Shown one piece after another: positions 12,590 to 43,177 of a DNA stretch of 64,000 nt (position 1 is the first letter of the stretch; every line of letters begins with the position of its first letter). A program made the translations under genes and the position numbers. A model generated the notes under the pieces. That model saw only the letters and a program-made list of their open reading frames with translations. It had not been told where the DNA came from and ran no database searches. Location: positions 32,001-96,000 of IMG/VR virus record IMGVR_UViG_3300020469_000021; one strand, written 5' to 3'. This stretch comes from a virus.

Positions 12590-12665
12590 GCCACTTTAGC
12601 TCAGATGGTAGAGCACCTCACTTGTAATGAGGATGTCGTCAGTTCGATCCTGACAAGTGGCTCCA
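12590..12665 (+). tRNA. tRNA-Thr(TGT)
   Basis: Cloverleaf: acceptor GCCACTT/AAGTGGC, anticodon arm CCTCA-CTTGTAA-TGAGG, T loop TTCGATC, encoded CCA. Confidence 0.95.
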
Positions 12666-35070: not shown

Positions 35071-37413
35071 ATGATTATCGCACAAGACAAGTCTAAAAAA
35101 GTAGTTCAATCTCATGATTTTGAGCAAGTAAATTGCACCATCGATGCAGAAGATATGCGCTATGTCGCATCTCTTTTGAGAAACAATTACTCCAATCCAC
35201 CTCTCGCAGTAGTTCGTGAGATTACCGCAAATGCGCTTGACGCAAATCTTGAAGCAAATTCAAGTCGCAGGATTGAAGTTACTATTCCATCTGCTCTTAA
35301 TCCTCATTTTGTTGTTCGTGATTTCGGGGGTGGACTCAGTAAGGAAGATATTTTTGGTCTTTATTCTAAGTATGGAAAATCAACGAAAAGAGATAGCAAT
35401 AATTATATCGGTGCTTTCGGCATTGGTAAGTTTGCCCCCCTTTCTTATGGTGATAATTTTACTTGCGTATCCTACCACAATGGTACGAAAGCTACATATA
35501 ATATTTTTGTTAATGACGATGACGATACCAAGATTGTCGAGTTGCAAAAGCCTCAACCATCTGACGAACCAAGTGGTTTAGTAATAGAGGTTGCAGTTGC
35601 CGATGAAGATGTAGACACTTTTAGAGATGTTTGCAAACAATTCTTTCGCTTTTTCTCTGAAGAAGAAAAACCTAAGTTTATTGGTGTTGGAGAAGATGAA
35701 GAGTTTTTCGAGCCATACAAGGTTGTAATGGAAGCTGAAGATAAATCTTGGTGGATTCTTGAGGATGAAAGAGATTATTGGAGTAAAAGCCATGCAGAAT
35801 CTCATGCAGTTATGGGTAGGGTTCACTATCCGCTTAACACAAATGCAATAAATTTCTCATCAATTACAGATGGAGATGAATCTCTAACTAGAAACTTGAA
35901 AGAGTTAGCTTCGCACGAAAATCTTTACATTCGTTTTGATATTGGTCAACTCAAATTGCATCATAGCAGAGAATCTTTAGAGTACAACAAGCAAACTCAA
36001 AAGGAAATTCTATCTGTTTTAATGAATGTCCAAAAGGATATTGAGAAGATTGCAAAGAAAAAACTTGGTGATGCAGAAGATTTGTGGGACGCAAAAGCCA
36101 AGTATGCTCAAGTAATTAATGCTCTTCCTTATGGTCTTAAAAACTTATTTCAAAATTCTTTTGAATGGGATGGCATAAAGATCAAAGGAATAGAGATCAG
36201 TAGGGATTACAAGTATCAAGACGATATTATTATTACTGATTACCACAAGGATTCCGATGCAGATGCGACCGATGGTTATAGAGTTCGCTCTACAAAAATT
36301 CACAGAATCCTTCCGCATGAGAATACTCAACTCTGTATTCAATTCAATAAGCATCCTCATGGCAACGCTCAAAGAGTCAGAACCTTGTTCCAACAGAACG
36401 AAAATCTTGATAAAGTTACTTGCGTTTATGCTACCGAAGTAGGAGAAGAGCATCTTTATGATATTGATGGTATGCAGTTTAACAAATTTAAGAAGGGTAG
36501 AACCATTGACATTTCTACTATTGAAAAGGCAAAGTTGCAATCGAGAGGAACAGGTGTTTCGGGAGAAAGTCGAGCAGATGTCCCTCTTTTTGAATTTGAT
36601 GCAGATAATAAGAATAAATGGCAAAGGAAAAACGCAGACTATTGGCTTAATTGTATAGAAAAAATTGATGAATTAGAGTCTATTGCTTCAGAAGGTGGAG
36701 ATACGCTAATTTATGTTCCGATTTCTAATTATAAGATTGTCGATGACAAGGTAACAGGTCAAGAAGCAGTTATGGGATTGGACGCTTTTAAGAGAGATGT
36801 AAAAGCAATTTTCAATATTCAAAAGGATCAAGATGATTCATTCAGTCAACCTTTAATTTTAGGTATACGCAAAAAAGATTGCAATAAACTCGATAAAGCG
36901 TATTGGAAATCATGGGATGACTACAAGAAATCTTTTGCAAAGTCTTATTTAATAAACAATAAGCATATAATTACAAAATCTGAGAAGGCAATGGCTTATA
37001 AGGAGAATCAGTATAATATGAAAAATTATCGTTTACTTCATTCTTTGTTGGATAATCCTAATTGGAGAAAATTCGTCCAAGCTAATTTGCCTTCCCATCA
37101 CATTTGGTCTGAACTCATGGAAGATGTTGAGTTGATGATTGCAGAAGGCGCAGAAGAGCAGAAACTTACAACTATTTATCGTCTAGTAAACTTCTTGAAG
37201 AAAGAGGATGAAGAATGGGTCAAGGAAAATATTCAGTCAGATTATGATGTGAATGAATTCGACAATAAATGTTTAGAAATTTCTAAGCAATACCCATTGC
37301 TCGTCAATATTTGTGAAGGAATTTACGGATGGAGAAGTATGCAAGAGGGAAGCATTGGAGACAACATAATTAGCTACATAAATTTGTGCGATAAAGTGGG
37401 GGTTGGGAATTAA
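35071..37413 (+). CDS. rIIA: rIIA-like protein (N-terminal GHKL ATPase)
   Basis: YSNP.LAVVREI.ANA.DA, VRDFG.GLS, YG.STKR.SN..IG.FGIG, SRESLEY; adjacent to rIIB. Confidence 0.85.
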   Translation: MIIAQDKSKKVVQSHDFEQVNCTIDAEDMRYVASLLRNNYSNPPLAVVREITANALDANLEANSSRRIEVTIPSALNPHFVVRDFGGGLSKEDIFGLYSKYGKSTKRDSNNYIGAFGIGKFAPLSYGDNFTCVSYHNGTKATYNIFVNDDDDTKIVELQKPQPSDEPSGLVIEVAVADEDVDTFRDVCKQFFRFFSEEEKPKFIGVGEDEEFFEPYKVVMEAEDKSWWILEDERDYWSKSHAESHAVMGRVHYPLNTNAINFSSITDGDESLTRNLKELASHENLYIRFDIGQLKLHHSRESLEYNKQTQKEILSVLMNVQKDIEKIAKKKLGDAEDLWDAKAKYAQVINALPYGLKNLFQNSFEWDGIKIKGIEISRDYKYQDDIIITDYHKDSDADATDGYRVRSTKIHRILPHENTQLCIQFNKHPHGNAQRVRTLFQQNENLDKVTCVYATEVGEEHLYDIDGMQFNKFKKGRTIDISTIEKAKLQSRGTGVSGESRADVPLFEFDADNKNKWQRKNADYWLNCIEKIDELESIASEGGDTLIYVPISNYKIVDDKVTGQEAVMGLDAFKRDVKAIFNIQKDQDDSFSQPLILGIRKKDCNKLDKAYWKSWDDYKKSFAKSYLINNKHIITKSEKAMAYKENQYNMKNYRLLHSLLDNPNWRKFVQANLPSHHIWSELMEDVELMIAEGAEEQKLTTIYRLVNFLKKEDEEWVKENIQSDYDVNEFDNKCLEISKQYPLLVNICEGIYGWRSMQEGSIGDNIISYINLCDKVGVGN

Positions 37414-37585
37414 TTTTCCCTTCCCTCATATTTTTGTTGACAAGTTCATGTATATTCGCATAATTGTAGGAATGCTTAGATAAAACAACTTTTTTAAAAT
37501 TTAAAATCATTAAAAATAAACTTGACAGAATCAAAAATTTTTAGTATAGTATAGCAATAACATTAAGAAATAGAGATAAAAAATT

Positions 37586-38764
37586 ATGAGTGAGAGAATA
37601 CCATATACATTAAGTGAAAGTTCAATTTGCGTTTTTTGGGAAGGCAAGCCTTATACCATTCGCAAAGACAATGTAAACTTTGAAAATTTGAAGCAAGCGA
37701 TATTTGACGCTAGATACGAGGATGTTCCACAATATCTTGACATCGTTAAGGCAGTAGAAAATTTTGTTGAAGGCGACATCGAAGTTCGTGACGAAGTAGT
37801 TTACTACAAAAGTCATCGCTTGCATGGTGTTGTCGTGAATAAGTTGCTTGAAATGCTTCGTGCAGGAATGAAAGACTCTGCTCCGCTTACTAATTTCATT
37901 TCTCGTTTGCAAGCCAATCCAAGCGCTAATTCGGTAAATGAACTTTATTCCTTTATGAATTACAAGATGCTTCCTAACACTCCCGAAGGTAAGGTTTTGG
38001 GATACAAAGGAGTTCAATCTGATTATTGGTCAACCACAGGTAATGCAGATACCATTGTTCTTCAAGGCAAGACAAACGAAAGGCATCAAATTTTGAATGA
38101 AGTTGGCACAACCATCGAAGTTCAACGCAGATGCGTGGATGACAATAAGGACAATCATTGTTCTTTTGGGCTTCATGTCGGTTCTTATGATTATGCTGAT
38201 TCTTGGGCAGGAGATGGTGGAAGATTGCTTGTAGTCGAGTTTGACCCTGCTGATGCAGTTAGCGTTCCGACTGATTGTGATTTTCAGAAATTGAGGGTTT
38301 CCAAGTACAAGGTAGTCGAAGACATTACTGAACACAGGAAAGAGATGAATAAACCTGTCTACGAGGCTAATAAGCCCATCTATGGATCGAATAATGATAA
38401 TGATTATGAAATTGAGGATGAGGATGAAGGTCGTGATTATCTTTATGATGATGATGGAATAGATGGTGATTATGACATGGATCAAACCGATTCGGATGTT
38501 GAATCAAGAGATTCCAAAGAATTCTTCAAGAGATTTGCGAGTGCTAAAAATGAGGAAGACTTCTTAACGCATTTAGCTATACGAAATTATGTAGACAATA
38601 AGCATGACAAGGGCATCAATCCTTCTGTCAAGCAAGTTCGTTCTTTACAAGTTGTTCGTGATGCGAAGTTTGATACTGCACAAGTTGGAGACATCTTAGA
38701 TCAATTAGGGTTTAATTTAGATGGAAATGGTTGCCTTACCGACAAGTTGGTTTTAAGAAACTGA
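37586..38764 (+). CDS. rIIB: rIIB-like protein
   Basis: NPS..SV.ELY.F...LP.TPEG..LGYK, CS.GLHVG...YA, V..DP.D.VSVP.D....KLRV.KY.V. Confidence 0.85.
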   Translation: MSERIPYTLSESSICVFWEGKPYTIRKDNVNFENLKQAIFDARYEDVPQYLDIVKAVENFVEGDIEVRDEVVYYKSHRLHGVVVNKLLEMLRAGMKDSAPLTNFISRLQANPSANSVNELYSFMNYKMLPNTPEGKVLGYKGVQSDYWSTTGNADTIVLQGKTNERHQILNEVGTTIEVQRRCVDDNKDNHCSFGLHVGSYDYADSWAGDGGRLLVVEFDPADAVSVPTDCDFQKLRVSKYKVVEDITEHRKEMNKPVYEANKPIYGSNNDNDYEIEDEDEGRDYLYDDDGIDGDYDMDQTDSDVESRDSKEFFKRFASAKNEEDFLTHLAIRNYVDNKHDKGINPSVKQVRSLQVVRDAKFDTAQVGDILDQLGFNLDGNGCLTDKLVLRN

Positions 38765-41070: not shown

Positions 41071-41530
41071 AAAAGAATAAAAAAGGTGTTGACTTTTTAA
41101 AAAAACCTGTCAGACTTATAGAATAACAATTAAAACAGGAGGAAAAATATGGCAAACATAGCAAAATGCGCAAGGGCAACTGCGGTAATGAACAAGGTAA
41201 AAGGGAGAGACCCACACGCTTTCAATCGCAGGTTTCTAGGATATAACGAGGCGATAGAGGGCATCATTGCCCAACAGAAACAAGCCGATCTTCAACTCAA
41301 GCAAATACAAGCTCAAAGAGCAATTAGAGTAGCAAAAGGGGTAGCATAATGAATTTATCACAGGAAAATAATTTAATAGAAAAAATTGCTCAATTAATAG
41401 ATGAGTATCTCGAAACAGAAGTCGAGGACTTGAGCCACATAGATAAGATGGTTCAAATACAAAAGCAAGAGGCAAAGAAACTACAAGAAAAAAATAATGC
41501 ACTTGACGCAATAAATGGAGGTAGCAAATA

Positions 41531-41746
41531 ATGATTGATCCCGACGAGTGGATGGAGGAAGCAATAGGTGCAAGTGATCCTTTTAATTCATTATTATATA
41601 AACTTAATCAAATAAAAAATCAGATGAAACAAGAGTTGGGCAGAGAGCCTACCGCAGAAGAAATTTCTTCTGAAACAAAAATTGAAATTGGAGTAATAAC
41701 AAAACTACTTCCTATCGTAAAAAAGAGAAAACTTCACGAACAATAA
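41531..41746 (+). CDS. Stand-alone sigma-70 region 3-like mini-protein
   Basis: KLNQIKNQMKQELGREPTAEEISSE matches the region 3 signature (ELGREPT.EE). Confidence 0.7.
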   Translation: MIDPDEWMEEAIGASDPFNSLLYKLNQIKNQMKQELGREPTAEEISSETKIEIGVITKLLPIVKKRKLHEQ

Positions 41747-41754
41747 AATTGTAC

Positions 41755-41783
41755 TTGACAAATATCAAATATTGTAGTATGAT
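41755..41783 (+). promoter_or_regulatory. Sigma70-type promoter of the large ncRNA locus
   Basis: TTGACA-17-TATGAT, followed by boxA-like GATCTTTAACA at 41833-41843. Confidence 0.7.
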
Positions 41784-41849
41784 ATATAAATAATCAAAAT
41801 TGAGAACCAAACTCAAATAAATAAAATAAATCGATCTTTAACATTTTAA

Positions 41850-42270
41850 TTTTCCAAGAGGCAGGACAAGCAATGGAGTTGAAAAACCTTAAATGGTTAG
41901 TAAGAAAATTGCTGGAGAGCCTTTAGAAGGACTGAAGTTACCTATAGAGCTTAAGTAGTTACTGAAGAAAATTTTTTCACTTTTATTTTCCTAGCTACTA
42001 CTTCGTATGAAGTAAGTTTCGCAAAAGGAGTTACTGACGAAATTCACTCTTGGAAAACACTTTGGAAGGGCTTATAATCCTTCCTGTGGGTGACTGAACT
42101 AATCCTGTCGTGAGCGGGATAAAGTATGCAAATTCCCTGTGGTAGGGTAGGTAGAGTCCAATCGGATGAGCTTAGTACGATTCCAAGTATAGTTTGTAGT
42201 TCGAAGTAGGTAATCCTGAACTGATGTTCACGCCGAAAAGTTGGAGGTATACAGTAGTCCTCCCCCACAC
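41850..42270 (+). ncRNA. Candidate large structured non-coding RNA
   Basis: 11-bp long-range helix 41850-41860/42047-42057; second domain closed by TGTGGG 42085/CCCACA 42264; many hairpins; no credible ORF. Confidence 0.65.
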
Positions 42271-42296
42271 CTATTTGTTTCATATTATTATTCCTG

Positions 42297-42445
42297 TTTG
42301 TGGTAAAGGTTGTATTTGGACTGAAACGTTTGAATAACCTTCTTTGCGAAGGGGTACTAAAGGGTATTGTAGCGGATTTCGTAGTCTGGTTATTTCATCG
42401 CCCTTCCCGTAACTACATAAAAGCGTGGAACACTTTCCCACTCCT
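42297..42445 (+). ncRNA. Second structured RNA or 3' domain of the large ncRNA
   Basis: Closing GTGGTAAAG/CTTTCCCAC; long hairpin AAGGTTGTATTTGGAC-TGAAAC-GTTTGAATAACCTT; AAGGG/CCCTT stem. Confidence 0.45.
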
Positions 42446-42448
42446 CCG

Positions 42449-42487
42449 ACCCTCACCTGCTTTTTTTTGCAGGTGGGGGTTTTTTTG
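42449..42487 (+). terminator. Intrinsic terminator
   Basis: ACCCTCACCTGC/GCAGGTGGGGGT stem followed by T-run. Confidence 0.8.
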
Positions 42488-42778
42488 TTGTTGACTTTGT
42501 GAGTTATTCTGTCAGTATATAGGTATGAATACATTAAAAGAAATTATAGATTGTTGGGGGTTTGTTAATTCTATTCAACTTAAAGAGTTGGCTCAGTATT
42601 TTCCAAACACTCCATTAGTTATTAAATGGGGTATGCGTCAGAGGGAGATCTGCCAAGCTTGCGATGTTGCTGATCGCATCGAAAAGGTAGAGTCTGAGTC
42701 AGACGACTATGTTCGTGAAGTTTTCATTCAAGTAGACAACTTCCGCCAATTAAAATCAGTACTAGGAGTAGAGGAATA

Positions 42779-43177
42779 ATGGAACTAAGAAATCAAAACA
42801 ATATTAGATACAAAATTGATTATAATAAAAAGGTTTTTGTTTATAAGAATTTACATAGAGACTGTTGGTCTATAAAACAGGGCGGGTTGGTAAAAGCCCA
42901 TGCCAATGAAGTTGATCTTTGGGATTGTGCTTTTCAAGTCAATGCCACAGGCAGGAAGAAAGTTTTGGAAGAGAGGCGCAAGAATGTTCACGCAGGAATC
43001 AAGGGTTATATGGATAAGGAGCCTATCGCATCGTACGAAGATTCATTTGAAGTAACTTACAATCCCTACAAGTACGAGACTTTTGTATACAAAAACTCAG
43101 AGAACCCAATCTACGCCTCTCATTCAGTCAAGCTATCACACAACAAAGTGCTGGCAGACTATGGACCCGAGCGATAA
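42779..43177 (+). CDS. Conserved phage hypothetical protein
   Basis: VYKNLH..CWSI...GLV..H...GR..VL.E.RKNVHA.I.G motif. Confidence 0.65.
   Translation: MELRNQNNIRYKIDYNKKVFVYKNLHRDCWSIKQGGLVKAHANEVDLWDCAFQVNATGRKKVLEERRKNVHAGIKGYMDKEPIASYEDSFEVTYNPYKYETFVYKNSENPIYASHSVKLSHNKVLADYGPER

Follow-up and report, generated by a model that had tools for sequence, protein, structure and literature searches.

A structured RNA gene of an uncultured marine phage, first annotated as one large RNA of a new or GOLLD/ROOL-like class, is built around a known family: its 3′ half is the manA RNA (Rfam RF01745), and what had been taken for a long-range helix domain in its 5′ half is an optional insert. We read the whole as probably a composite, free-standing early gene, whose NusB/S10-protected transcript would join the manA core to swappable modules and act as a stable RNA in its own right. 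manA was put forward as a riboswitch candidate in 2010 and has stayed an orphan since; according to a 2026 preprint, its RNAs build RNA-only cages in vitro. The present locus and more than 100 relatives make up one large manA branch that appears not to serve as a gene leader, is separately promoted and terminated, and carries an rRNA-type boxA-like leader; separate promotion and termination together with this leader argue for a trans-acting or structural role of manA. What the module site carries changes even between nearly identical phages, and both of its states were found in a single sample, which offers a new handle on the interaction partners of the RNA. The core family was already known; new for this window are the polymorphism of a 207-nt module, the presence of that module in RNA libraries, the statistics of the variable site, and a recurrent element in the 3′ tail.

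Genomic setting of the RNA gene

The window, i.e., the whole 64,000-nt stretch of DNA analyzed here, corresponds to bases 32001–96000 of a 104,956-bp IMG/VR virus record with an estimated completeness of 79%, and is AT-rich (G+C about 33%). Genes resembling rIIA and rIIB lie at 35071–38764, just upstream of the RNA gene, and the phage also encodes a DNA ligase, a clamp loader and a terminase; the source of the RNA gene is an uncultured large marine phage with rIIA- and rIIB-like genes. Because its rIIA is less than 31% identical to that of any isolate phage, no cultured relative or host is known. Among 50,697 isolate phage records, blastn found no match to the RNA region; the manA core alone drew only chance matches to tRNAs. 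The window itself contains a tRNA gene at 12590–12662 (Rfam tRNA, 69 bits).

The RNA gene fills the interval between a 71-aa ORF, which ends at 41746, and an 84-aa ORF, which starts at 42525, and no credible protein-coding gene lies between the two (Table 1). The 71-aa ORF (41531–41746), placed directly upstream of the manA promoter, matches Sigma70 region 3 (PF04539, E 6.5e-8). L002, the closest relative, lacks this entire gene, a second indel besides the 207-nt one described below, and a scan with the 71-aa ORF recovered zero relatives.

Table 1. Components of the manA unit and its downstream neighbor, in window coordinates
Feature	Position	Strand	Basis and remarks
Sigma70-type promoter, TTGACA-17-TATGAT	41755–41783	+	Consensus scan, 11/12 matches; same place in relatives
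Leader hairpin, TTGAG, loop AACCAAA, CTCAA	41800–41816	+	In 95/103 distinct leaders
boxA-like element, GATCTTTAACA	41833–41843	+	A-rich spacer before (41817–41832), TTTTAA after (41844–41849)
Strain-specific 207-nt hairpin module	41850–42056	+	Closed by 11-bp helix; boundaries ambiguous by 2 nt
Linker ACACTTT, between variable site and P1 of manA	42057–42063	+	Kept in relatives with and without inserts
manA RNA core (Rfam RF01745), divergent subfamily	42064–42273	+	cmscan 76.3 bits, E 1.2e-17, model positions 1–192
Tail hairpin	42293–42354	+	MFE fold; common to L002 only
Recurrent structured element, ~85 nt	42362–42440	+	14 copies in 14 loci
Intrinsic terminator	42448–42481	+	13-bp stem, 8 G-C pairs, T-run
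New promoter (TTGACT at 42491) and 84-aa gene (42525–42779)	42491–42779	+	Kept downstream in relatives

The core is a divergent manA RNA

A cmscan of positions 41500–42700 against Rfam 15 returned a full-length manA match well above the curated gathering score of RF01745 (55.2 bits), which identifies the 3′ half of the stretch as this known RNA. No other Rfam family came near its threshold; matches to PyrR, SNORD14, mir-268, sRNA41 and JPX_2 reached 16–21 bits, far under their cut-offs, and were taken as chance. Covariation among homologs supports the helices: when 114 cores of the lineage were aligned, 26 of the 42 predicted pairs showed compensatory changes. RF01745 is catalogued as Cis-reg, that is, as a 5′-UTR element; here, a terminator and a new promoter separate the core from the next gene.

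These results revise the first-pass annotation, which was made by eye and had offered either a divergent GOLLD or ROOL RNA or a new class. Neither assignment survives: GOLLD and ROOL gave no match at E ≤ 10 within 41500–42700, and the core belongs to manA. Most of the structure that had been noticed is nevertheless genuine. Five of the listed hairpins (GGAAGG/CCTTCC, ATCCTGT/GCGGGAT, CCCT/AGGG, TGAAC/GTTCA and GGAGG/CCTCC) fall inside the full-length covariance match and are therefore far beyond chance; the suggested ACTG/CAGT pairing falls inside it as well, and the remaining hairpin, TACTTC-GTAT-GAAGTA, is present within the 207-nt insert, not in the core. The long ORF-free interval from promoter to terminator, with its many helices, had made it natural to see one ornate RNA of about 700 nt organized by a long-range helix. 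However, its modules occur independently of one another (the core alone, the insert optional, the tail element elsewhere), and this, together with the missing GOLLD or ROOL match, refutes the assignment to a single large RNA family, a reading we now consider hardly tenable at all.

Limits and coding potential of the transcription unit

Both the near-consensus promoter and the strong terminator that had been claimed for this region were recovered (Table 1), and transcription would start near 41790. The span originally proposed, 41755–42270, coincides at its 3′ end with the end of the manA core, but the predicted transcription unit continues to 42481. A second promoter candidate, TTGAGA-16-TAAAAT at 41800–41827, was dropped because the same bases form a covarying RNA hairpin and lie within contigs from RNA libraries. 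Folding-energy z-scores (insert −1.7, tail −3.2, entire unit −1.6) are unremarkable taken alone.

The claimed lack of a credible ORF also holds: the minus strand offers at most frames of 79 and 84 aa, the plus strand one of 64 aa. We nonetheless considered whether the unit encodes small proteins, either through one of these 64–84-aa frames or through a 16-aa ORF at 41874–41924, whose ATG at 41874 has an AGGA 6 nt ahead of it. Against this, the insert, and hence the mini-ORF, is missing from all relatives; the minus-strand frame across the manA core is open in just 20 of 112 relatives; indels in the tail relative to L002 (17, 3 and 1 nt) do not keep to multiples of three; and conservation in both the core and the tail element is accounted for by RNA covariation. 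With no conserved frame to explain the region, a coding function is very improbable. A variant from RNA libraries (X19) that is unchanged over 41863–41934 was weighed as a sign of mini-ORF coding and was read as a recombination mosaic instead.

A lineage of separately promoted manA units

Relatives were collected in three ways: by the downstream 84-aa protein, by a leader/core pattern in IMG/VR, and by a core pattern specific to the lineage, run against marine metagenomes, the last of which gave at least 119 matches, most of them from ocean samples of TARA and JGI. The same architecture recurs in at least 110 distinct marine phage loci, in which a TTGACA/TATnAT promoter is followed by a 5-bp hairpin, an A-rich spacer, the boxA-like element, TTTTAA, a variable site, ACACTTT and the core. 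Members of this lineage score 75–88 bits against the manA model, in contrast to 155–196 bits for canonical manA RNAs of the cyanophage type from these collections. The canonical RNAs have no such leader and begin 5–10 nt past their promoter, and many of them sit directly before an ORF, often at 10–45 nt. Canonical cyanophage manA in L069, L027, L054 and L080 is followed by a conserved hairpin, GACCTAAGATGCAAC...GGGCAGATGGTC, with a U-tract, which may be the ‘abiF’-like match reported after manA in phage S-CREM1 (PMC9964418).

A strict scan detected a terminator after the core in 75 of the 119 units listed, at distances of 12–340 nt, and inspection by eye showed that most of the units it missed have large-loop terminators. 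Beyond the terminator, a TTGAC promoter follows in 70 of the 75 strictly detected cases. Exceptions downstream of the core include units in which an ORF follows directly (L147 and L162) and one in which a promoter and a tRNA follow (L244). Between core and terminator, the sequences of relatives are unrelated, and in L003–L005 other genes, terminators and promoters intervene before the 84-aa gene.

This arrangement bears on the function for which manA was first proposed. Weinberg et al. described it in 2010 as a candidate riboswitch found in 5′ UTRs, both of marine phage genes and of those in Photobacterium (PMC2864571). In this reading, the core could sense a metabolite or factor and set terminator read-through into the 84-aa gene and its neighbors. 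Such a cis-acting riboswitch or attenuator would suit the short spacing between canonical cyanophage manA and its ORFs, the terminator that comes soon after the structured RNA in the manner of a transcriptional riboswitch, the recurrence of the same 84-aa gene family downstream in many relatives, and the ORFs that directly follow the core in L147 and L162. However, the varying distance from core to terminator and the unrelated modules in between make a poor fit to an overlapping expression platform, and the relatives have no common overlapping alternative pairing. The fresh promoter past nearly all strictly detected terminators and the gene order in L003–L005 speak in the same direction, and no ligand is known. 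We therefore regard cis-regulation as unlikely in this branch. With its own promoter, its own terminator and then a new promoter in most relatives, manA here is, as read from the sequence, a separate transcription unit and a free-standing RNA gene, not part of a 5′ UTR.

Beyond the viral collections, the lineage pattern gave 18 matches in a genome collection, of which three are real; these are contigs in MAGs of inconsistent taxonomy and are probably mis-binned phage. Matches in Photobacterium stayed under the manA cut-off, so no host was inferred from them. In L264, a contig of 210 kb assigned to a Cellvibrionales bin, the manA leader hairpin is separated from its promoter by a small lipoprotein-like ORF, and the RNA would there be co-transcribed behind a gene.

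The 5′ leader and its boxA-like element

The leader hairpin, which recurs in nearly all distinct leaders (Table 1), shows compensatory variants (ATGAG/CTCAT and TTAAG/CTTAA). In 47 of the 95 leaders with the hairpin, its loop can pair with sequence just 5′ of boxA to form a pseudoknot, compared with 18.9 ± 2.5 in a partner-swap control; the window’s own loop has no such pairing.

The boxA-like leader claimed at first pass is conserved across the lineage. TCTTTWANA is found at the boxA position in 126 of the 126 eligible units listed, compared with 5–7 of 126 in reversed, shuffled and downstream controls, and the lineage form is G(A/T)TCTTT(A/T)A(N)A (GWTCTTTWANA). Relative to the gammaproteobacterial consensus GYTCTTTAANA (PMC5725501), which may not be that of the host, the window element matches at 10 of 11 positions, with A in place of Y at position 2; a perfect match to this consensus occurs in 17 of the 126 relatives listed. 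The leader thus combines resemblance to the boxA consensus with promoter-proximal conservation. Published comparisons include the E. coli rrn boxA, UGCUCUUUAACA, and the B. subtilis rrn boxA, AUGAUCUUUGAAA, which comes after a small hairpin at the 5′ end and was shown by NMR to bind NusB; boxA is also found ahead of CRISPR arrays (PMC13753749). The window sequence, UCGAUCUUUAACA, joins GAUCUUU as in B. subtilis to AACA as in E. coli. Since the element resembles boxA and is strictly kept where a long untranslated RNA begins, recruitment of Nus factors by the leader is the best reading, by analogy with these systems. In these respects the first-pass view was correct, namely that the region specifies a structured RNA that is non-coding and has a promoter, a terminator and a boxA-like leader of its own.

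Presence in RNA libraries

Transcription could be checked on metatranscriptome contigs, and the RNA libraries of three studies cover the unit, with leader, insert and core contiguous. One contig spans 41795–41977 with 0 differences (X11), a second 41864–42057 with 3 differences (X18), and contigs of the third study (X19) span 41804–42098 with 11 differences at a depth of 35, and 42072–42261. This evidence consists of assembled contigs, from which strand, ends and level are not readable and in which DNA carry-over is possible. Contigs of two studies start at 41795 and 41804 without loose ends, close to where the −10 box would place the start; this hints weakly that they mark the transcript start. 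No RNA-library contigs lie over the flanks or the tail, and this was given no weight as evidence.

A hypervariable site between leader and core

The perfect 11-bp long-range helix described at first pass is exact: TTTTCCAAGAG and CTCTTGGAAAA form an inverted repeat at 41850–41860 and 42047–42057, with 186 nt between the arms. It does not, however, organize a single large RNA, and instead closes an optional 207-nt module. L002, whose 84-aa protein is 98% identical and which has the same promoter, leader and core, lacks window bases 41850–42056, its leader reading ...GATCTTTAACATTTTAA joined directly to ACACTTTGGAAGG.... An independent DNA sample (X4) contains both states: one contig carries the insert and matches 41802–42084 with 0 differences at a depth of 7, and in another, at a depth of 3.1, 41847 is followed directly by 42055, so that exactly 207 nt are left out. 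The module is thus polymorphic, present or absent, both between close relatives and within one DNA sample.

Searches for further copies of this module came back empty. The phage record holds no second copy, nhmmer found no homologue among about 250 loci, and patterns built on an 18-mer of the insert or on the two inverted repeats with their gap had 0 matches in IMG/VR. Within the insert, an 18-nt direct repeat, AAG(T/G)AGTTACTGA(A/C)GAAA, occurs at 41953–41970 and 42025–42042 with 72-nt spacing. A second repeat, TTT(A/T)ATTTTCC(A/T)AG, occurs at 41845 and 41981, hinting at a possible internal duplication.

The site itself is generally hypervariable. Among the 126 units listed, 77 carry 20–340 extra nt at this position and 49 are empty; by sequence, the 77 inserts group into 26 clusters, of which 16, including that of the window insert, have a single member. 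Nearly all inserts consist of one to three hairpin domains with closing helices of roughly 6–19 bp. The plus strand folds better than its complement in 66 of the 77 (Wilcoxon p = 4e-11), a G-U signature that, for the set as a whole, points to structure at the RNA level. Insert state is shared by 88% of pairs at ≥97% core identity, by 57% at 94–97% and by 30% at 90–94%, and yet 120 pairs share an insert cluster at <85% core identity. Turnover faster than core divergence, combined with clusters common to distant cores, makes this a pattern of cassette exchange and not one of a multi-copy mobile element. The largest cluster, with 16 loci (among them L156, L145, L144, L184 and L196), is a hairpin of about 45 nt with CUGAUGA and CUGAG motifs reminiscent of box C/D, and the insert of L218 contains a tRNA T-arm-like GGGGTTCGAGTCCTC hairpin. 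A module marked by GTGGTTTTGTTGGGAAGCT lies 5′ of the core in L138 and L140 and 3′ of it, in the tail, in L226, so that modules move between both flanks.

For the window insert taken alone, neutral or selfish DNA is a serious possibility, if not one that we think likely. A MITE-like element or slippage palindrome tolerated at a permissive site, adding nothing to RNA function, would account for the perfect 11-bp terminal inverted repeats, the precise presence or absence with a junction ambiguous by 2 nt, the singleton status, and the near-equal folding of its two strands (−51.0 vs −50.1 kcal/mol, with a marginal z of −1.7). Of the hallmarks of a MITE, the terminal inverted repeats are there, but multiple copies and a target-site duplication are not: the insert is single-copy and without homologue, and its junction shows the 2-nt ambiguity only. 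Lacking a second copy in the genome or the searched collections, it does not behave as a mobile family. Moreover, 61% of the relatives listed have the site occupied, inserts as a group show the plus-strand folding bias, and the window insert is carried in RNA-library contigs. In the X19 variant, five of six substitutions at predicted paired sites of the insert keep the pair as G-U, which lends weak support as one comparison. On balance, we prefer to see the insert as one of a set of exchangeable RNA modules that may contribute to the function of the transcript.

The three CUGA motifs of the insert, together with its 18-nt direct repeat, could also suggest an RNA of the guide type, such as a stem-loop TIGR-Tas unit hitch-hiking on the strong manA promoter. 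TIGR-Tas systems pair a Nop-domain Tas protein with arrayed units; in the 105-kb record, itself 79% complete, no Nop-domain protein (PF01798) was found at E ≤ 1 and no array is present, and 207 nt is far beyond the size of a tigRNA unit (PMC12045711). A guide function for the insert is accordingly highly improbable.

The 3′ tail and a recurrent structured element

As a whole, the stretch from 42274 to 42447 is common to the window and L002 only among about 250 loci. In the tail hairpin, the differences in L002 turn G-U into G-C pairs, as read by eye. The structured element that follows it has a far wider distribution: it is present in 13 further loci, where it usually does not adjoin manA and often directly precedes a manA promoter. 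It starts with GGGTATTGTAGCG in the window; across its copies the start is GGGTATTGTRGCG, then come a nested hairpin and TCATCGCC, and a second hairpin forms the end. This second hairpin has a conserved loop, GTAACTACATAAAAGC, with the invariant form GTAAC(Y)ACATAAAAGC, and a U-run usually comes next. Compensatory changes occur at 10 of 21 predicted pairs among the 14 sequences, and cmscan found no Rfam match to the element. Loci in which it is found with the invariant loop GTAACYACATAAAAGC include L150, L161, L165, L167, L182, L186, L226, L227, L238, L240, L250 and L254. The element often ends the unit right before a manA promoter, and it may be a terminator-linked motif of this phage group. 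With this element in the 3′ tail and inserts on the 5′ side, the core is flanked by modules on both sides.

A model for the composite RNA gene

Under the reading that we favor, host RNA polymerase would initiate at the near-consensus sigma70 promoter, and the first ~60 nt of the transcript would comprise a small hairpin at the 5′ end and, after it, a boxA-like element left single-stranded. On the analogy of rRNA operons and CRISPR arrays, this element would recruit NusB/S10, allowing a long untranslated, structured transcript to escape Rho and fold co-transcriptionally. The transcript would then run through the hypervariable site (occupied here by the 207-nt module), the divergent manA core and the 3′ tail element to the intrinsic terminator. 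Its product would most likely be a stable RNA acting in its own right, possibly in trans, and not a riboswitch ahead of a gene, with the variable modules as swappable accessories exchanged among related phages by recombination in the conserved flanks.

Like ROOL and GOLLD, manA RNAs are reported to form RNA-only multimers and cages in vitro, the assemblies including pentamers, decamers and a 60-mer icosahedral cage held together via kissing loops, and some manA RNAs are monomeric (preprint 10.64898/2026.07.01.735769). Homo-oligomerization in vitro is the sole biochemical activity reported so far for manA RNAs, and the variant described here may share it. A bolder proposal, which we think quite improbable, is that the unit is a gene for a self-assembling RNA particle, made in the manner of rRNA with the help of Nus factors, whose hypervariable modules, as swappable cargo or surface parts, would act as decoys, guides or handles for processing and be diversified by selection in conflict between phage and host or between phages. 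If this were true, one conserved RNA scaffold would present a fast-changing repertoire.

Comparison with known systems

In its mode of variation, the manA unit recalls the PeSL-type early-gene cassettes of T4-type phages, reportedly described by Arbiol et al. in 2010. Those too are small early units framed by a terminator and an early promoter, with rapid module exchange among relatives; they differ in that PeSL modules are protein-coding ORFs, whereas here hairpin modules shuffle within one RNA gene.

The leader resembles those of rRNA operons and CRISPR arrays in its order of parts: a small hairpin at the 5′ end, then an unpaired G(A/U)UCUUU(A/U)A(N)A, then a long untranslated structured transcript. 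Unlike them, it is phage-encoded, precedes an RNA of 200–700 nt and has A or U at position 2.

With ROOL and GOLLD, the manA unit shares the status of a phage-borne structured RNA of unassigned function, and closed homo-oligomers have been reported for manA in vitro (10.64898/2026.07.01.735769). In contrast to this likeness, there is no match in sequence or structure, the manA core is much smaller, and the oligomers were seen for other manA members. A functional analogy between manA and ROOL or GOLLD would thus be far from empty, even though the family assignment fails.

The closest comparison is with manA itself. The window core retains the conserved blocks GUGACUGAA, GUGGU, GGUAUACAGUA and CCCAC, the multi-stem fold with its enclosing GUGGG/CCCAC helix, and the marine phage setting. 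It departs from canonical cyanophage members in its score (76 bits vs 155–196) and in two remodeled central helices. Around the core, the window RNA has a hairpin and boxA-like leader of about 60 nt that canonical members do not have, carries optional 5′ and 3′ modules, and ends at its own terminator ahead of a new promoter, which places it outside any 5′ UTR.
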